From: a virus
Taxonomy: Duplodnaviria > Heunggongvirae > Uroviricota > Caudoviricetes
IMG/VR virus record: IMGVR_UViG_3300045988_152359
Length of the DNA: 28,308 nucleotides
Strand: one strand, 5' to 3'
Part shown: one piece after another, positions 7,850-26,553 of the stretch
Position numbering within the stretch: position 1 is the stretch's first letter
How the letters are laid out: the number at the start of each line of letters is the position of its first letter
Translations under genes and position numbers: made by a program
The notes under the pieces: model-generated
Told to the model about the DNA's origin: nothing
Databases searched by the model: none
What the model saw: only the letters and a program-made list of their open reading frames with translations

Positions 7850-8477
7850 TGTACCGCTGAGTCTGAAATCTGTCAGTGACTCCGGTGAGTTTGAAGGGTA
7901 TGGCTCCGTCTTTGGTGTAAAGGACAGCCACGATGATGTGGTGATGTCCGGGGCATTTGCTGCTTCCCTGCGGGCGTGGAGTGACAGAAAAGCGTTACCT
8001 GCGCTGCTCTGGCAGCACCGCATGGATGAACCCATCGGTGTTTACACCGAAATGAAGGAAGACGATGTCGGGCTTTACGTCAGGGGACGGTTGCTTATTG
8101 ATGATGATCCCCTCGCAAAACGCGCACATGCACACATGAAGGCCGGTTCGTTAACCGGCCTTTCTATTGGGTACGTCCTGAAAGACTGGGAATACGACCG
8201 GAGCAAAGAAGCCTTTCTGTTGAAAGAAATCGACCTCTGGGAAGTCAGTCTGGTGACGTTTCCGTCTAACGACGAGGCGCGGATCAGCGACGTCAAGAAC
8301 GCGCTGGCCCGCGGGGAAATCCCCGAACAGAAAAAAATCGAAAGAGTCCTGCGTGATGTCGGACTCTCCCGTACCCAGGCCAAAGCATTCATGGCCGGGG
8401 GCTATGGCGCACTGTCCCTGCGCGACGCTGAGGATGTGGGCTCTGCACTGAATGCACTGAAAAATCTGAACTTCTAA
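7827..8477 (+). CDS. Prohead maturation protease (HK97 family)
   Basis: About 216 aa from ATG 7827 (AAGGA RBS); motifs GYGSVFGVKDSHDDVVMSGAF and LWQHRMDEPIGV resemble HK97-type prohead proteases; sits between portal and capsid. Confidence 0.8.
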   Translation: MQTKQRLDVPLSLKSVSDSGEFEGYGSVFGVKDSHDDVVMSGAFAASLRAWSDRKALPALLWQHRMDEPIGVYTEMKEDDVGLYVRGRLLIDDDPLAKRAHAHMKAGSLTGLSIGYVLKDWEYDRSKEAFLLKEIDLWEVSLVTFPSNDEARISDVKNALARGEIPEQKKIERVLRDVGLSRTQAKAFMAGGYGALSLRDAEDVGSALNALKNLNF

Positions 8478-8491
8478 TCAGGAGAAATACG

Positions 8492-9697
8492 ATGGCGGTT
8501 GATATTAAAGATGTCGAACAGGTCGCGCAGGAGCTGCAGCAGAAGTTTGACGACTTCAAAGCAAAGAACGACAAGCGCGTGGATGCGATTGAGCAGGAAA
8601 AAGGCAAGCTTGCCGGGCAGGTGGAAACCCTGAACGGGAAACTCAGCGAGCTGGAAAATCTCAAAAGCGACCTTGAAAAAGAGCTGCTTGAGCTGAAACG
8701 TCCGGCAGGTGGAGCGCAAAATAAACTGGCCACCGAGCATAAAGAGGCGTTTGTGGGCTTTCTACGTAAAGGCCGTGAAGACGGTCTGCGCGATCTGGAG
8801 CGTAAGGCATTGCAGGTGGGTACCGATGAAGACGGTGGCTACGCCGTGCCGGAAGAACTGGATCGCAACATTCTTAACCTGCTGAAAGATGAAGTGGTGA
8901 TGCGTCAGGAAGCCACGGTGATCACCGTTGGCGGTTCCGACTACAAAAAACTGGTGAATCTGGGCGGTACGGCTTCCGGATGGGTGGGGGAAACGGATAC
9001 GCGATCCCAGACTGCCACCTCCAGACTGGAGCTGATTGAACCTCTCATGGGGGAAATCTACGGCAACCCGCAGGCTACCCAGAAAATGCTGGACGATGCC
9101 TTCTTCAACGTGGAGGCCTGGATCAACAGCGAGCTGGCAACCGAATTTGCCGAACAGGAAGAAATTGCCTTTACCTCAGGCGATGGCACCAAGAAGCCGA
9201 AAGGGTTCCTGGCGTATGAATCCACTGATGAAACCGACAAGGTCCGGGCGTTCGGCAAACTTCAGCATATTGTATCCGGCGAAGCGACCGCGGTGACCGC
9301 AGACGCCATTATCAAACTGATTTACACGCTGCGTAAGGCACACCGCACTGGCGCGAAGTTCATGATGAACAACAACAGCCTGTTTGCCATCCGTCTGCTG
9401 AAAGACACCGAGGGTAACTATCTGTGGCGTCCGGGGCTGGAACTGGGGCAGCCGTCCTCTCTGGCGGGTTACGGTATCGCTGAAAACGAACAGATGCCGG
9501 ATATCGCCGCTGATGCGAAAGCCATTGCATTTGGTAACTTCAAACGGGGTTACACCATCGTTGACCGTATCGGCACCCGCATTCTGCGTGACCCGTACAC
9601 CAATAAACCGTTTGTCGGTTTTTATACCACCAAGCGCACCGGCGGGATGCTGGTCGATTCGCAGGCCATCAAACTGCTGAAGATTGCAGCGGCGTAA
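8492..9697 (+). CDS. Major capsid protein (HK97 fold) with N-terminal coiled-coil delta/scaffold domain
   Basis: 401 aa; N-terminal about 100 aa coiled-coil rich in E/K/L, then a capsid domain; strong RBS CAGGAGAAATACGATG; followed by a hairpin. Confidence 0.9.
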   Translation: MAVDIKDVEQVAQELQQKFDDFKAKNDKRVDAIEQEKGKLAGQVETLNGKLSELENLKSDLEKELLELKRPAGGAQNKLATEHKEAFVGFLRKGREDGLRDLERKALQVGTDEDGGYAVPEELDRNILNLLKDEVVMRQEATVITVGGSDYKKLVNLGGTASGWVGETDTRSQTATSRLELIEPLMGEIYGNPQATQKMLDDAFFNVEAWINSELATEFAEQEEIAFTSGDGTKKPKGFLAYESTDETDKVRAFGKLQHIVSGEATAVTADAIIKLIYTLRKAHRTGAKFMMNNNSLFAIRLLKDTEGNYLWRPGLELGQPSSLAGYGIAENEQMPDIAADAKAIAFGNFKRGYTIVDRIGTRILRDPYTNKPFVGFYTTKRTGGMLVDSQAIKLLKIAAA

Positions 9698-19417: not shown

Positions 19418-20462
19418 ATTTCAGCGCCCGACGCTGGCAGAAAATATCAGTATGCTCCGTAACGATTTATTCGCCAGGCTGGACGTCAGCGACACGCTCC
19501 GGCGCATGGATGAAGACGTGCGGGCAAAGGTGTATGCGGCGGCGCTGCATACGGTTTACGGGTACATCGATTATCTGGCAATGAATATGCTGCCTGACCT
19601 GTGCGATGAGTCCTGGCTGGCGCGACATGCTGCGATGAAACGGTGTCCGCGCAAGGGGGCCACGGCTGCCAGCGGGTATATGCGCTGGGAAGGTGTCAGC
19701 GATGGCCTGAAGGTGACTGCCGGGAGCGTGATTCAGCGCGATGACCTGGTTCAGTACACGGCAACTGCCGATGCAACCAGCTCCGGTGGTGTCCTGCGTG
19801 TGCCGATCACTTGCTCAACTACAGGCGCGGTCGGTAACGCTGACGACGGTACGGCATTAATCCTGGTCACGCCGGTGAATGGTCTGCCGTCTTCCGGTGT
19901 GGCTGACACCCTGACAGGCGGATTTGATACTGAAGAGCTGGAAACGTGGCGCGCCCGCGTCATTGAGCGGTATTACTGGACGCCTCAGGGCGGGGCTGAC
20001 GGGGACTATGTCGTCTGGGCTAAAGAAGTGCCAGGCATTACCCGTGCATGGACATACCGCCACTGGATGGGAACGGGAACTGTCGGTGTGATGATTGCCA
20101 GCAGTGACCTGATTAATCCCATTCCGGAAGAATCAACGGAAACGGCAGCAAGACAACATATCGGGCCACTGGCCCCGGTGGCAGGCTCTGATTTGTATGT
20201 ATTCAGGCCGGTGGCACATACGGTGGATTTTCATATCCGCGTGACGCCGGACACACCAGAAATACGGGCTGCCATTACCGCGGAGTTGCGTTCGTTCCTG
20301 CTGCGTGATGGTTATCCGCAGGGAGAACTGAAGGTGTCACGTATCAGTGAAGCGATTTCCGGTGCGAACGGGGAATACAGCCATCAGTTGCTTGCACCGG
20401 CAGACAATATCTCCATTGCAAAAAATGAACTGGCGGTACTGGGGACGATTTCATGGACGTGA
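19404..20462 (+). CDS. Baseplate J-like protein (Mu gp47-like)
   Basis: 352 aa, position and size typical of baseplate J-family wedge proteins. Confidence 0.8.
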
Positions 20463-21037
20463 CAAACGATGATTACATCCGTCTGTTGTCGGCACTGTTG
20501 CCACCCGGTCCGGCGTGGTCAGCCAGAGATCCGGCGATTGCCGGTGCGGCACCGTCATTAACCCGCGTTCATCAGCGTGCGGATGCCCTGATGCGGGAGC
20601 TGGATCCGCGCACCACCACTGAACTGATAAACCGCTGGGAGCGTCTGTGCGGTCTGCCGGATGAATGTATTCCCGCAGGGACACAGACCCTTCGCCAGCG
20701 TCAGCAACGACTGGATGCGAAGGTTAACCTGGCGGGCGGCATCAATGAGGATTTTTACCTTGCACAGCTTGCTGCCCTGGGCAGACCAGACGCTACCATC
20801 ACGCGATACGACAAAAGCACGTTCACCTGCTCATCTTCCTGTACTGACGCGGTGAATGCGCCGGAATGGCGGTATTACTGGCAGGTCAACATGCCAGCCG
20901 CCACCAACACCACCTGGATGACATGTGGCGATCCCTGTGATTCCGCACTGCGTATCTGGGGCGACACCGTTGTCGAATGTGTGCTTAACAAACTCTGCCC
21001 GTCGCATACCTACGTAATTTTTAAATATCCGGAGTAA
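20453..21037 (+). CDS. Tail protein, Mu gp48 / e14 YmfQ-like
   Basis: 194 aa immediately upstream of the tail fibre gene, the same length as e14 YmfQ as I recall it. Confidence 0.7.
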
Positions 21038-21040
21038 TCC

Positions 21041-21784
21041 ATGCATCGTATAGACACGAAAACCGCGCAGAAGGATAAGTTCGGCGCGGGTAAGAACGGT
21101 TTTACCCGTGGTAATCCCCAGACTGGTACGCCTGCCACCGATCTGGATGATGACTACTTTGACATGTTGCAGGAGGAGCTTTGCAGCGTTGTGGAGACCT
21201 CCGGTGCCAGCCTGGAGAAGGGGCGGCATGACCAGTTGCTTACCGCGCTTCGTGCTCTGCTGTTAAGCCGCAAGAATCCGTTTGGTGATATCAAATCGGA
21301 TGGCACGGTGAAAACGGCTCTCGAAAACCTTGGTTTGGGAGAAGCGGCAAAACGGAATGTGGGCAACGGGGAAAACCAAATCCCTGATATGTCTTTCTGG
21401 ACGGTTACTGGTGGCGATGGAAATTTTGTGATTCGTCAACCTGACGGGCTAATCATTCAGATGGTTACTGTAAGTATAAGCGGCCCAGTGGCGATGAATG
21501 GAATGACTGATAATGCTTATGCCATCACAGGTTCTAATAAGTCTTATATTGCCACAGCCACATTGCCCTTTGTATTTCCTAATAAGGTGCTGGGCGTTAT
21601 CCCTATGGTATCAACAACAGCTTATGGTGGTGTATCCAGTAATATTACAGGTTCATACGCGACTGCGGTTTGTTCTTTTGCCGCTGTCAGGGGGAATAAT
21701 ACGATTGTGTTCAAAGTCGACAAACCACTGAATGCAGCCTTTCCTTCAGATACCAGCGTCTCAGCGTTAATCATTGGACGGTAA
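21041..21784 (+). CDS. Tail fibre protein (constant N-terminal part plus currently expressed variable C-terminal part)
   Basis: 247 aa; the crossover site at 21319-21344 lies in-frame in the gene (encodes LENLGLGE), so the C-terminal about 150 aa are inside the invertible segment. Confidence 0.85.
21319..21344. repeat. Left recombination (crossover) site of the Pin-type invertible segment
   Basis: CTCTCGAAAACC-TT-GGTTTGGGAGAA; inverted copy of the site at 23251-23276 (13-bp identical core GGTTTGGGAGAAG in the reverse complement); resembles gix/cix-type sites with an AAACC-NN-GGTTT core. Confidence 0.75.
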
Positions 21785-21786
21785 TA

Positions 21787-22230
21787 ATGAACTCAGTATT
21801 CTTTTCACCCGGAAGTAAAAGTTTTTATCTGCAGGAATTGTTTCCAGAATATGAGGATGCGGGAACGCTTCCTGATGATGTTATTGAAATTACAAGAGAA
21901 ACATATGAGCAATTTCTTGGGCTGCATCCAGAAGGGAAAGAAATTGGCGCTGACAGTTCAGGACGGCCAGTATGGATTAATTCCCCACCCCCTTCAAAAG
22001 AGGATGAGGTGTTGACGGCTGAAATGAAAAAAATATCTTTGGTTTCTGAAGTCAATACCTACATCAATACTCATCAGTGGCCTGGCAAAGCGGCGATTGG
22101 TCGTCTGAAAAGTGAGGAACTGGCGCAATATAATTTGTGGCTGGATTATCTGGACGCACTGGAACTGGTTGATACCTCCAGTGCGCCAGATATTGAATGG
22201 CCTACGCCTCCGGCAGTTCAGGCCAGATGA
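21787..22230 (+). CDS. Tail fibre assembly protein (Tfa), currently expressed orientation
   Basis: 147 aa directly after the tail fibre gene, inside the invertible segment. Confidence 0.8.
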   Translation: MNSVFFSPGSKSFYLQELFPEYEDAGTLPDDVIEITRETYEQFLGLHPEGKEIGADSSGRPVWINSPPPSKEDEVLTAEMKKISLVSEVNTYINTHQWPGKAAIGRLKSEELAQYNLWLDYLDALELVDTSSAPDIEWPTPPAVQAR

Positions 22231-22804
22231 CATCCGGCGCGGTGCTGGTATCTGTTGCCGTCACCGCGTCAATGTAATCCAGCACAGCGTTAAGTCGGGT
22301 GTTTTCTGTCTGCGTCAGCTTCCGCCCGGCCTGTAATTTCAGTTGAATCAGACTGATGGAAGCCATTGCAGCATCAATCAGCGACTGGCGCTGTGCTTCT
22401 GCCGCTTCTACTGCGGCGCTATGCTGTGCCTCAGTATCGGTCACCCATTTCTCACCATCCCATTTATCGTATGGCGTTAACGGTGCGAGAGTGGTTGTAT
22501 TTTCGGGATAGTCGCCTGGTGCTGTGATTTCTTTAGCATCTCCCGTTTCGGTGTTATAGACAATTTCACCGCGATGGTCTGGCACATATTCCCATGAGTT
22601 AAAATCTGCAGAACGGCAGATTGCATAACCAGTTTTGTATGAGCCAGGAGCATCTAAACAGGAACATGCCGGAATGCCGACACCCACAGCAAGATATTCA
22701 GTTGATGTGAAAATATATTCCCGTGTTTCACCATCATAGTTATAAACCGTAATATTTCCTGCCTGGGTGGCGATAAATTCGTTATTTAATACATCGTAAT
22801 CCAT
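22202..22804 (-). CDS. Alternative tail fibre assembly protein (Tfa'), silent orientation
   Basis: 200 aa on the opposite strand, convergent with and slightly overlapping the plus-strand tfa; paired with the alternative fibre C-terminus. Confidence 0.8.
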   Translation of the reverse strand: MDYDVLNNEFIATQAGNITVYNYDGETREYIFTSTEYLAVGVGIPACSCLDAPGSYKTGYAICRSADFNSWEYVPDHRGEIVYNTETGDAKEITAPGDYPENTTTLAPLTPYDKWDGEKWVTDTEAQHSAAVEAAEAQRQSLIDAAMASISLIQLKLQAGRKLTQTENTRLNAVLDYIDAVTATDTSTAPDVIWPELPEA

Positions 22805-23304
22805 TATGCAGCCCTCACGATATAATTAAAGGCAATGTTACGAGGACGGTTTTCGTTTGCAGTTGGAACAACTCTGGAAGCATCAAATGTTACTCGCTTT
22901 GCATAACCACCTTTAATTGAATCAGATGAAGTATCTCCGATGACGCTGGTTGTAAAAACGCCAGAGTCAGAAGGATAGGTATTAAACCTGACATCTACTA
23001 ATGCACCAATTATATTTCGAATGGTATCTCCCTGTGACGAAAGCAAGCTACGGTTAGTATCAATCCCTCTTCCATCATCCCAGCCACGAATAAACTCACC
23101 GCGTAAATCAGGCAATTTATTTGTCGGGTAAACCTTTGCCAGTTCCGGGTATTCTTCAGCAGAAAAAGCCGCTCCGTTGCATTTCAGCCAGCCTGTTGGC
23201 GGAGTGGCGGAAGGCCACGGAACAGGCACGCCAACGGGTAATGCCGAACCTTCTCCCAAACCAACGTTTATGAAAATGCAGAAATAACGAGCAGATGACA
23301 TCAT
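22804..23304 (-). CDS. Alternative tail fibre C-terminal segment (promoter-less; fused to the constant part after inversion)
   Basis: Contains the tail-fibre motif LPDLRGEFIRGWDDGRG and the in-frame site-encoded VGLGEGS; the reading frame matches the constant part across the crossover site. The part beyond 23264 lies outside the invertible segment. Confidence 0.75.
   Translation of the reverse strand: MMSSARYFCIFINVGLGEGSALPVGVPVPWPSATPPTGWLKCNGAAFSAEEYPELAKVYPTNKLPDLRGEFIRGWDDGRGIDTNRSLLSSQGDTIRNIIGALVDVRFNTYPSDSGVFTTSVIGDTSSDSIKGGYAKRVTFDASRVVPTANENRPRNIAFNYIVRAA
23251..23276. repeat. Right recombination (crossover) site of the Pin-type invertible segment
   Basis: TTCTCCCAAACC-AA-CGTTTATGAAAA; central dinucleotide AA is the complement of TT at the left site; about 55 bp upstream of the invertase start. 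Confidence 0.75.
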
Positions 23305-23330
23305 TCCTGCTTTTGTCAGGGAGATCTACC

Positions 23331-23885
23331 ATGCTTATTGGCTATGTACGTGTGTCAACAAATGACCAGAACACAGATCTACAACGTAATGCGCTGAACT
23401 GTGCAGGATGCGAGCTGATTTTTGAAGACAAGATAAGCGGTACAAAGTCCGAAAGGCCGGGACTGAAAAAACTGCTCAGGACATTATCGGCAGGTGACAC
23501 TCTGGTTGTCTGGAAGCTGGATCGGCTGGGGCGTAGTATGCGGCATCTGGTCATTCTGGTTGAGGAGTTGCGCGAACGTGGCGTTAATTTTCGCAGCCTG
23601 ACGGATGCTATTGATACCAGCACACCGATGGGGCGTTTTTTCTTTCATGTGATGGGGGCCCTGGCTGAAATGGAACGAGAACTGATTGTTGAACGAACAA
23701 AAGCTGGACTGGAGGCTGCTCGCGCACAGGGACGAATTGGTGGACGTCGTCCCAAACTTACACCAGAACAATGGGCGCAGGCCGGGCGATTAATTGCATC
23801 AGGCGTTCCTCGCCAGAAGGTGGCGATCATCTATGATGTTGGTATATCGACACTGTATAAGAAGTTTCCGGTCGGAGATAAATGA
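23331..23885 (+). CDS. pin: Serine DNA invertase (Pin/Gin/Cin/Hin family)
   Basis: 184 aa from ATG 23331: MLIGYVRVSTNDQNTDLQ... (catalytic Ser in VRVSTNDQ) and C-terminal HTH GRRPKLTPEQWAQAGRLIASGVPRQKVAIIYDVGISTLYKKF; the ORF-track start at 23295 is an extension. Confidence 0.95.
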   Translation: MLIGYVRVSTNDQNTDLQRNALNCAGCELIFEDKISGTKSERPGLKKLLRTLSAGDTLVVWKLDRLGRSMRHLVILVEELRERGVNFRSLTDAIDTSTPMGRFFFHVMGALAEMERELIVERTKAGLEAARAQGRIGGRRPKLTPEQWAQAGRLIASGVPRQKVAIIYDVGISTLYKKFPVGDK

Positions 23886-23942
23886 AACCGTAGCACGTCG
23901 TATGCAAGATCGTGCTGCGGTTTATGCTTATCACTTAAAGAC

Positions 23943-24812
<870 letters not shown>

Positions 24813-24957: not shown

Positions 24958-25540
24958 CTTTATCAATGACTTATCTCCCGACTTCCCGCCTTGCTTTTCC
25001 TAAACAGAACAATCGTAGAATATTCTTGAAGGGTTAGATCGTCACTGTTTTCTGTTCGATACTGTGACATTCAGCACTTGATTCGCTATGGATCTGACAG
25101 GAAGGTTTCGAGCGAAAATCTGCAGTTATTCAGTCGTTTTCTTATCGGTCACCATTATTCTTTTAGACATTGATCCTACAAAGCTGCCGCAAAGTTGGTG
25201 GTGGGAACTGAAGTTGCGTAGAGAAGGGGTCAATACCCGGAGGCAAACATGGGCTGGCAAAAGTGTAGCGGTATTAGGCGCAGCTATTTAGCCTAGTTAT
25301 GTTTTATGAAAACTTGATATCATATAAGTGTCTTACTTATTGGCTGTAAATAAGGTTTTCTAAGGAATTGTTTCTTTAGTATCATTTGTAACTGTAACGG
25401 AATTTATAATCCTTTACTTTATTTTTACGGTATTTTTTATCACACCCTATTTTTTATGTGGTTTTTTATACTGAAGTTTGGCAAAGTGAACTTTATATGC
25501 ATATACTTCATCCTGGTTTCAGTTAAATTGGGTGGATGAT

Positions 25541-26284
25541 ATGGCAACTACATGTTCAGTTATATTGATTTTGGAGTCCTTTGATGTTTATTTCGGAAAA
25601 GAGAGTGTGTTTCTGGATAGAGGTTTATCTGTACTTGTCGACTCTAGCTATAGAGATTTTTTCCTGACATATCCTGAAAGAGTGATAGTGGCGGATTTTG
25701 GCGCTGAGTTTATTAGTCGCTATTTGAAAGCTAATAACTTAAGGGATATTTCTGATTGTAGGGAATATCCATCTTATTTAAAAATAAACTTTGCTGACTT
25801 CAGTTTAATTAAAGGATTAATTAGTTGGGCTAATCACTGTGCTGAATATATAGAAATTTTTGATGAGTCTATTGCTTTTACATGTCTCTCTGCATTTTCT
25901 TCTGAAAAACAATTTGGAGTATTTCTGTTTGGATGTTTGAAAAGCACAGGGGCTAAAGTTAAAACGATTATTCATACGGATTTATCTGCACCATGGCATC
26001 TTAAGGATATATCATCAAGATTATATCTCAGCGAAAGTTTACTAAAGAGGAAATTGAAAGAAGAGGGGGTATCATTCAGTAAGATCATACTTGATGAGAG
26101 GATGCAAATGGCTGAATATTTACTCAGCACTCGTTGTTATCCTATTAGTAAAGTAGCTAAGGTCTGTGGTTATGCCAGTGTCTCATACTTTACTTATGTA
26201 TTTAGACGTTATTTTGGTGTTTCTCCAAGTCAATACTCTCAGAGGAGTTCAGAAAGTAAAATTCTTACTCACCAGGGAATCTAA
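25541..26284 (+). CDS. AraC/XylS-family transcriptional regulator (AppY/YdeO/GadX-like), AT-rich
   Basis: About 247 aa; C-terminal double-HTH WHLKDISSRLYLSESLLKRKLKEEGVSFSKIILDERMQMAEYLL...VAKVCGYASVSYFTYVFRRYFGVSPSQY; visibly AT-rich with a long AT-rich leader. Start taken as ATG 25541 (the track uses GTG 25532). Confidence 0.85.
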   Translation: MATTCSVILILESFDVYFGKESVFLDRGLSVLVDSSYRDFFLTYPERVIVADFGAEFISRYLKANNLRDISDCREYPSYLKINFADFSLIKGLISWANHCAEYIEIFDESIAFTCLSAFSSEKQFGVFLFGCLKSTGAKVKTIIHTDLSAPWHLKDISSRLYLSESLLKRKLKEEGVSFSKIILDERMQMAEYLLSTRCYPISKVAKVCGYASVSYFTYVFRRYFGVSPSQYSQRSSESKILTHQGI

Positions 26285-26290
26285 TCATTG

Positions 26291-26553
26291 TTCTTGCCCC
26301 CTTATTTCCAGACAGGGGGTGTATCTTAAGTTAACGTTACCCGCTGACGTCGATATTCTCGCGGAGAGCGATAACCCAACGCACTGTGCGGATGGTTTTC
26401 ATTGTAATGTTCGATCGCCACTGCAAGATTATGCAATGCCGTTCTTATATTCGGTTTCGGCATGAACGCGATGTAGTCTTCCTTCATCGTTTTCACGAAC
26501 CTTTCTGCCATTCCATTACTCTGAGGACTGCTGATTACCCATGAGGAGTACAA
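26291..26553 (-). mobile_element. IS2-like (IS3-family) insertion sequence remnant: terminal repeat plus 3' end of the transposase gene, truncated
   Basis: Terminal sequence TTGCCCCCTTATTTCCAGACA at 26294-26314 resembles the IS2 inverted repeat; minus-strand ORF 26326..26553 encodes the transposase C-terminus; similarity ends abruptly near 26553. Confidence 0.65.
26326..26553 (-). pseudogene. IS3-family transposase (OrfB/InsD-like), C-terminal fragment
   Basis: 75-aa ORF ...[56 protein letters not shown]...; lacks the upstream catalytic (DDE) region. Confidence 0.7.

Follow-up and report, generated by a model that had tools for sequence, protein, structure and literature searches.

A pin-associated invertible tail-fibre locus of the e14/SfV type in an E. 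coli prophage

Invertible tail-fibre switches of phages share a common layout, in which the fibre N-terminus is constant and encoded outside the segment, and the segment holds two alternative C-termini, one on each strand, to be joined in frame through the crossover site. Din-type sites are two inverted 26-bp elements of imperfect dyad symmetry whose half-sites are conserved and whose 2-bp cores match. The Din invertases are proteins of ~180-195 amino acids with a resolvase catalytic domain at the N-terminus, a catalytic serine at position 9-10 and a C-terminal helix-turn-helix, and in these systems the 5' portion of the invertase gene contains an enhancer with two Fis sites, Fis and negative supercoiling being needed (the invertasome). 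The P segment of e14 and its invertase gene pinE were reportedly described by Plasterk & van de Putte in 1985 and by Mehta et al. in 2004. Phages SfV, SfI, SfII and SfIV of Shigella are serotype-converting, and these phages as well as E. coli phage SKA5 have a lambda-like head and a Mu-like tail. Inversion in e14 was demonstrated by whole-genome sequencing, PCR and qPCR (PMC4272514; PMC12529663). The role of the e14 switch in K-12 is disputed, and defence against phage T2 has been proposed (PMC12529663).

We analysed a 28.3-kb stretch of viral DNA (28,308 nucleotides, hereafter the window), which is an E. coli myovirus prophage of the SfV/e14 type. Its tail-fibre locus is the already described e14 P segment/pin system and as such nothing new. 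The first-pass annotation had proposed an architecture like that of the Mu G, P1 C and e14 P segments, and the crossover sites, reading frame, tips, chaperones and invertase all agree with this proposal. The features of the locus are as follows.

21041-21784, plus strand: tail-fibre gene as now assembled, 247 aa; an ORF with a constant N-terminus (residues 1-101) ending in GLGE, followed by the variable tip
21318-21343, plus strand: left 26-bp crossover site (pix-type), CTCTCGAAAACC-TT-GGTTTGGGAGAA, within the fibre gene; core TT at 21330-21331
21332-23262, no strand: invertible segment, 1931 nt, the stretch between the core dinucleotides
21787-22230, plus strand: tfa, tail-fibre assembly chaperone of the expressed tip; Pfam Caudo_TAP, E 2.7e-28
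22202-22804, minus strand: tfaE-like assembly chaperone of the silent tip; Pfam Caudo_TAP, E 2.3e-32
22804-23262, minus strand: silent alternative fibre C-terminus (stfE type) with LPDLRGEFIRGWDDGRG; Pfam Collar, E 3e-15
23251-23276, plus strand: right 26-bp crossover site, TTCTCCCAAACC-AA-CGTTTATGAAAA; core AA at 23263-23264
23331-23885, plus strand: pin, 184-aa serine DNA invertase starting MLIGYVRVSTNDQ; Pfam Resolvase and HTH_7, catalytic Ser9 present
23352-23415, plus strand: putative Fis recombinational enhancer within the 5' portion of pin; G-N13-C 15-mers at two places (pin nt 22-36, pin nt 71-85)

Aligned as inverted repeats, the left and right sites agree at 21 of 26 positions, and over the inner 14 nt (TT plus GGTTTGGGAGAA) they do not differ at all. 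The pair is in inverted orientation, and the cores TT and AA are equivalent when inverted. Previously the sites had been placed at 21319-23276; both were confirmed, with the start moved by one base to 21318. A degenerate invertase-site pattern (≤3 mismatches) was found in exactly two places in the window, which are these two sites, with a shuffled expectation of 0.00. Since the same search revealed no further cryptic crossover sites in the 28.3 kb, the locus is a two-state switch and not a multi-site shufflon. A 25-nt imperfect inverted repeat (21214-21238 / 23232-23256, 84%), which overlaps the right site, was taken as chance because it does not contain the AAACC-NN-GGTTT core. Alignment with known Gin/Cin/Pin sites had been set beforehand as a test, and the known sites used for comparison were those of e14 and Mu only, P1 cix and Salmonella hix being left out. 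The left site is identical at 26/26 positions to the K-12 e14 crossover site at L005:4279 and the right site, likewise at 26/26, to the one at L005:6106. With Mu gix the left site agrees in register at 18/26 positions, its codon phase equals that of gixL in Mu S, and the half-site consensus TTnTCnnAAACC is common to the sites of the window and Mu gix.

Taken on its own, the identical 14-nt core would fit an inverted repeat that is a chance match or homologous coding sequence, without site-specific recombination: with 3 mismatches allowed it was found 3 times against 3.1 expected, and is thus not rarer than chance. The full 26-bp pattern, however, was found twice with 0 expected, both 26-mers are those of experimentally verified e14 sites, and an invertase gene adjoins the right site. 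Moreover, in a comparison of E. coli IrN and Cn5 the homologous segment of 1931 nt is an exact reverse complement, the flanks of 6432 and 4568 nt show 0 mismatches, and the inversion breakpoints fall exactly within the crossover sites. The pattern count, the e14 identity and these breakpoints refute the chance or coding-homology explanation, to which we attach practically no weight.

The measured length of 1931 nt agrees with the ~1.9 kb between inverted sites given in the first-pass annotation, which had also stated that the reading frame is kept across the site in both orientations. The left site, within the 247-aa fibre ORF, encodes ...LENLGLGE..., and upon inversion in silico the fibre becomes an uninterrupted in-frame ORF of 249 aa (...GLGEGSALPVGVPVPWP...LPDLRGEFIRGWDDGRG...). 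As had also been described, one fibre C-terminus with tfa lies on the plus strand and an alternative C-terminus with a second tfa on the minus strand, each tip being accompanied by a Caudo_TAP chaperone. In both cassettes the chaperone gene is directly downstream of its own tip, tfa starting 2 nt beyond the fibre stop codon. The two chaperone genes are convergent, and the 3' end of the tfaE-like gene, whose product is identical to K-12 TfaE at 173/196 residues, overlaps tfa by 29 nt. Fibre residues 1-101 are almost invariant among four related fibres and divergence starts right after GLGE. The expressed tip gave a weak C-terminal match to Pfam Gp53-like_C (22.7 bits, under the cutoff of 24.9), while the silent tip is identical to K-12 stfE at 101/152 residues; the sequences of the two tips are unrelated, 17/41 being the best local alignment, and the tips belong to different Pfam families. 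An NCBIfam search named none of the fibre or tfa proteins at family level.

The pin gene starts 55 nt after the right site. Its assignment as a Pin-type invertase is borne out by Pfam (Resolvase 175.5 bits, HTH_7 49.4 bits), by the match to the Mu Gin structures 3UJ3/4M6F (E 1e-93 over residues 1-181) and by identity to K-12 PinE at 175/184 residues (95%); identity to Mu Gin is 141/180 (78%), and the MLIGYVRVSTNDQ motif is the same as in wild-type Gin. NCBIfam gave only sub-threshold matches of Pin, to other serine recombinases. Judged from its sequence, the pin gene is intact and full length and retains the Gin active-site motifs. A promoter and terminator scan of 20900-24100 found 7 candidates against 4.7 +/- 1.8 in shuffled sequence, which is not above chance, and detected no promoter for pin in the 55-nt gap between site and gene.

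A Fis enhancer within pin is plausible. Both 15-mers occupy equal positions in Mu gin and K-12 pinE, a conservation confounded by coding constraint, and 95.5 bp separate the first 15-mer from the centre of the site in the window, Mu and K-12 alike, the 15-mers lying inside the coding region. Of the AT-rich Hin enhancer motifs ATTTA and TAATG quoted in PMC3798978, TAATG is present in the window and ATCTA replaces ATTTA. Dependence of the switch on Fis and the enhancer would be expected.

Among complete E. coli genomes, 16 have the 3.6-kb locus oriented as in the window and 32 have it flipped. Relatives whose sites are identical and whose DNA is 95.6% identical exist in both orientations, and so does the otherwise identical pair IrN/Cn5; hence the observation of a single orientation only, which had been named as grounds for rejecting the switch, does not hold. 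The window itself displays one orientation, which would also suit a fossil switch, its architecture kept and its orientation fixed in a source strain where the segment no longer inverts, for example through a silent pin, a defective enhancer or decay of the prophage. Damage to or loss of the invertase is indeed seen in related prophages, fin being frameshifted in PSS-11 and pin absent from BE311. On the other hand, Pin appears intact and is 95% identical to the active PinE, both sites equal the active e14 sites, and the relatives just described are found in both states, so that we regard a fossil as very unlikely. Inversion probably takes place in the source strain itself.

The likeness to e14 extends beyond the two 26-bp sites and Pin. 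The constant fibre stem has 2 differences in ~101 residues, the upstream ymfQ product (YmfQ) is identical at 189/194 residues, the gene order fibre-tfa / tfaE-stfE-pin is the same, and a tfaE plus stfE-type cassette stands at the silent position. Nevertheless, e14 is a 15-kb remnant, whereas the window holds a myovirus prophage that seems complete, having genes for terminase, portal, capsid, sheath, tape measure and baseplate. The expressed cassette differs as well: the 247-aa fibre with a gp53-like tip stands in place of the 209-aa StfP, and its tfa is only 69/123 identical to TfaP. Furthermore, the far end of the stfE-type tip diverges, the segment measures 1931 bp compared with 1797 bp reported in K-12, and pin is followed by a LEM-3-like GIY-YIG protein gene, in contrast to mcrA in e14.

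With Mu the locus shares the layout Sc / Sv-U / U'-Sv' / gin and a left site inside the fibre gene (QNLGLQE in Mu, ENLGLGE here); over both sites the in-register agreement is 17-18/26. In contrast, the G segment of Mu spans ~3 kb and its fibres are much longer (504 aa for S), no similarity is detectable between the variable tips, and the two gix sites repeat each other perfectly in inverted orientation around a TC/GA core, while the sites of the window have a TT/AA core and outer half-sites that are not alike. Baseplate and fibre-stem DNA is 97-99% identical to that of the Shigella phages SfV, SfI, SfII and SfIV and of E. coli SKA5. The same fibre-tfa / tfa'-Sv'-invertase module is present in SKA5, a record deposited as a complete genome. 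For SfI, SfII and SfV the match stops at window position 21391, ~48 nt beyond the left site.

We therefore consider it highly probable that the locus is a prophage tail-fibre switch of the e14/SfV type, in which inversion by Pin swaps tip and chaperone and thereby hedges bets on host range. Pin dimers would bind the two 26-bp sites and cut both at the central TT/AA dinucleotide, and strand exchange by 180-degree subunit rotation would invert the 1931-bp segment. As the fibre promoter and the first 101 codons lie outside the segment and the site itself encodes GLGE, either orientation should join the stem in frame to one tip, and the matching tfa chaperone would be brought directly downstream of whichever tip is expressed. 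At present this would be the gp53-like tip, with the collar-domain stfE-type tip as the alternative. Virions released by a population of lysogens would thus carry one or the other of two fibres, and the two tips may recognize different receptors and so change the host range.

The minus-strand ORF of the silent cassette raises a further issue, since it (22804-23304) extends through the right site and beyond the segment, where it has an ATG of its own at 23304 closely preceded by AGGA. The leader, MMSSARYFCIFINV, has a conserved counterpart in K-12 (MMPFACYFFIFINV), and in IrN and Cn5 it is joined to one or the other tip. The switch might accordingly serve the host, a leader-fused free tip protein made from the silent position blocking adsorption of other phages; inversion of the e14 P segment is reported to yield StfE2, which blocks T2 adsorption (PMC12529663). 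However, the prophage looks complete, from terminase to baseplate genes, and thus a host-range role in the virion is the simpler reading. In addition, the tip of the would-be StfE2 analogue differs from K-12 StfP past the first few residues after GLGE, and so the T2 result is not transferable to this prophage; nor was a promoter found for the minus-strand ORF in the scan of 20900-24100, the candidates not being above chance. A role of the switch in serving the host is thus unlikely in our view. It is likewise unlikely that inversion, in addition to its effect on the virion fibre, switches a second product, a short protein from ATG 23304/23301 consisting of leader MMSSARYFCIFINV and the silent-position tip, which might mask a receptor or exclude superinfection in the lysogen. 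If true, a single recombination event would reset both the host range of the outgoing phage and the phage resistance of the host.

For the virion fibre switch that we favour, confirmation of a textbook programmed inversion mainly serves annotation. The fibre gene should carry two alternative 3' ends, what is called "hypothetical protein" and "phage tail protein" at this locus represents a single gene in its two states, and assemblies of the strain may disagree here without any error. The claim of T2 resistance in K-12 (PMC12529663) lends the locus some topical interest. Furthermore, the pair of gp53-like and collar-domain cassettes enlarges the collection of exchangeable receptor-binding modules from E. 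coli and Shigella prophages of the e14/SfV type, a collection useful for the prediction of host range.

Pin-catalysed, probably Fis-assisted inversion very likely operates at this locus; it would join the constant N-terminal stem of the tail fibre to one of two variable C-terminal tips, each with its own tail-fibre assembly chaperone (Tfa), giving rise to two virion types. The first-pass annotation had proposed such a Pin-type invertible tail-fibre switch, and both its observation and its interpretation proved correct.

Features of the switch locus and its neighbours.
20453-21037, ymfQ, Mu gp48-like baseplate protein
21041-21784, fibre gene, 247 aa
21318-21343, left crossover site, CTCTCGAAAACC-TT-GGTTTGGGAGAA
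21787-22230, plus strand, tfa, Pfam Caudo_TAP (E 2.7e-28)
22202-22804, minus strand, tfaE-like gene, Pfam Caudo_TAP (E 2.3e-32)
22804-23304, minus strand, silent-site ORF with LPDLRGEFIRGWDDGRG, reading out through the right site
23251-23276, right crossover site, TTCTCCCAAACC-AA-CGTTTATGAAAA
23331-23885, pin, Pfam Resolvase and HTH_7
23943-24767, minus strand, LEM-3-like GIY-YIG domain gene, 274 aa, Pfam PF22945 (E 2.4e-14)
25532-26284, plus strand, AraC-family regulator gene, beyond the prophage tail module
26326-26553, minus strand, IS3-type integrase-core (transposase) gene fragment, beyond the prophage tail module

Both previously quoted site sequences are present in the window, the left one correctly located except for its start, which lies at 21318 and not at 21319. 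As inverted repeats the two sites agree at 21 of 26 positions, with the core dinucleotide and inner half-site (14 nt) identical, and a generic repeat finder also picked up the pair (20-nt repeat, 95%). The 14-mer alone, at three mismatches, is no rarer than chance in the window; a degenerate pattern of the whole 26-bp site, allowing up to 3 mismatches, occurs at exactly 2 places in 28.3 kb versus 0.00 expected from shuffles, and a chance repeat was excluded. Since this pattern revealed no further crossover sites in the 28.3-kb window, the switch is a simple two-state one. A 25-nt inverted repeat (84% complementary) linking 21214-21238 in the constant fibre region with 23232-23256, overlapping the right site, is without the AAACC-NN-GGTTT core and was taken as chance. 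The sites also align with those of known invertases, as the earlier proposal required. They align in register with gixL and gixR of phage Mu, read from the Mu record (17-18 of 26 positions), the consensus of the eight half-sites of window and Mu being TTnTCnnAAACC. The left site encodes LENLGLGE (fibre residues 94-101); its Mu counterpart gixL lies inside the fibre gene S, where it encodes QNLGLQE and has the same codon phase. The core is non-palindromic, TT on the left and AA on the right, an arrangement that permits inversion by serine invertases. The cryptic prophage e14 of E. coli K-12 (MG1655 e14 region) has both 26-bp sites without a single difference, and they are the ones given as the inverted repeats of the e14 P segment (TTGGTTTGGGAGAAGG; PMC12529663).

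In silico inversion of 21332-23262 (1931 nt) left both 26-mers unaltered, and the frame, as had been claimed, is kept in both orientations: the fibre of 247 aa is replaced by an uninterrupted ORF of 249 aa that ends in a stop codon overlapping the start codon (ATG) of the tfaE-like gene. In Pfam the expressed tip has a weak Gp53-like_C match (22.7 bits, under the cutoff of 24.9) and the silent tip a phage tail collar domain (E 3e-15). When the fibre was aligned with K-12 StfP and the fibres of E. coli strains Cn5 and PSS-11, the first 101 residues were essentially invariant and the likeness collapsed right after GLGE; the crossover site is therefore also a mosaic boundary. Homology to phages SfI, SfII and SfV continues about 48 nt beyond the left site (21344-21391) and then ends, and the match to one E. 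coli genome (P470, H38) ends at 21342, inside the site. The site region seems to be used as a boundary for cassette exchange among these prophages. The convergent tfa genes overlap at their 3' ends by 29 nt (22202-22230), and an imperfect inverted repeat of 18 nt on either side of it (22140-22157 and 22266-22283) is due to a C-terminal motif shared by the chaperones (WLDYLDA... / VLDYIDA...).

Pin residues 1-181 align with the crystallised Mu invertase Gin (3UJ3, 4M6F; E ~1e-93), and the two proteins share, unchanged, the VVWKLDRLGRS motif and the MLIGYVRVSTNDQ segment, which holds the catalytic serine; overall identity is 175/184 to K-12 PinE and 141/180 to Gin. An upstream in-frame ATG (window 23295-23330), adding 12 codons (MTSFLLLSGRST), was rejected, as the Gin/PinE alignment and the RefSeq annotation of relatives favour the start at 23331. 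Two G-N13-C type 15-mers lie at nt 22-36 (GTGTCAACAAATGAC) and 71-85 (GTGCAGGATGCGAGC) of pin, with equivalents at exactly the same positions in Mu gin and K-12 pinE, and the first is 95.5 bp from the nearest crossover site centre in window, Mu and K-12 alike. This location fits the published place of the gin and hin enhancers within the invertase genes (Kahmann 1985; Johnson & Simon 1985, both as referenced in PMC3798978). Because the region codes for the most conserved part of Pin, the conservation of the 15-mers is non-independent evidence; a candidate Fis enhancer within the 5' portion of pin is plausible but unproven.

Only the sequenced orientation occurs within the window, and a locked or fossil switch is nevertheless unlikely, as pin and the sites are intact. 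For the first-pass annotation, only one orientation ever being seen alongside an active invertase would have counted against a switch; public genomes of relatives contain both. Of complete E. coli genomes, 39 contain all of the sequenced left junction (20900-21830), and the in silico flipped junction is whole in ten genomes (coverage 99-100%). The 3.6-kb locus is found in one piece in the sequenced orientation in 16 genomes and flipped in 32. The clearest case is a pair of isolates from Indonesia, IrN and Cn5, with a prophage whose switch locus is 95.6% identical to that of the window; their flanks (6432 and 4568 nt compared) show 0 mismatches, and between the core dinucleotides the 1931 nt of one strain are the exact reverse complement of those of the other (0 mismatches versus 1379 directly). 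Accordingly, RefSeq annotates both strains with the same proteins, their accessions having changed places. In clonal K-12 cultures both e14 orientations coexist, as determined by sequencing and PCR (PMC4272514) and by qPCR, and PinE overproduction raises the inverted fraction (PMC12529663). In PSS-11 (8333-8734) a related prophage has the segment flipped, and its invertase, annotated as fin, is frameshifted and truncated; this switch looks naturally locked, unless another Pin-type invertase serves in trans.

The window is the late region of a prophage that looks complete and functional, with genes for terminase, portal, an HK97-type capsid, sheath, tube, tape measure and a Mu-like baseplate. 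Many E. coli genomes contain prophages 96-98% identical to it, and its baseplate shares 97-99% identity with that of the Shigella phages SfI, SfII, SfIV and SfV. The fibre-tfa / tfa'-Sv'-invertase module is also present in phage SKA5, whose record was deposited as a complete genome, and e14 is a remnant of this phage type. The GIY-YIG gene lies immediately 3' of pin, where K-12 e14 and phage vB_EcoM-689R6 instead have the McrA restriction enzyme (mcrA), and is kept in strain BE311, a relative that has lost pin; this position at the prophage end has the look of a slot in which cargo or defence genes are exchanged. In relatives, IS421 or other IS elements are inserted between the GIY-YIG and AraC genes.

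The ATG of the silent-site ORF (23304 or 23301), with AGGA just upstream, lies outside the invertible segment, so that the silent tip, whichever of the two it is, is preceded in the ORF by a 14-aa leader, MMSSARYFCIFINV (23265-23304, minus strand). This leader is the counterpart of the first part of StfE2, a chimera of the short stfE leader and the StfP tip that inversion is reported to create in K-12 and that reportedly keeps T2 from adsorbing (PMC12529663). A second orientation-dependent product of this kind, as a rival or additional role, might be suggested by the leader's conservation with K-12 stfE and by the IrN and Cn5 loci, where it is joined to one or the other tip. However, the tip concerned differs from StfP, a promoter scan found no promoter and the prophage appears functional; such a role is therefore improbable.

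Dozens of RefSeq genomes have annotated loci nearly identical to this one, and the system is the already described founding member of the "Pin" class; the only local particularity of the window's switch is which tip-cassette pair is present.
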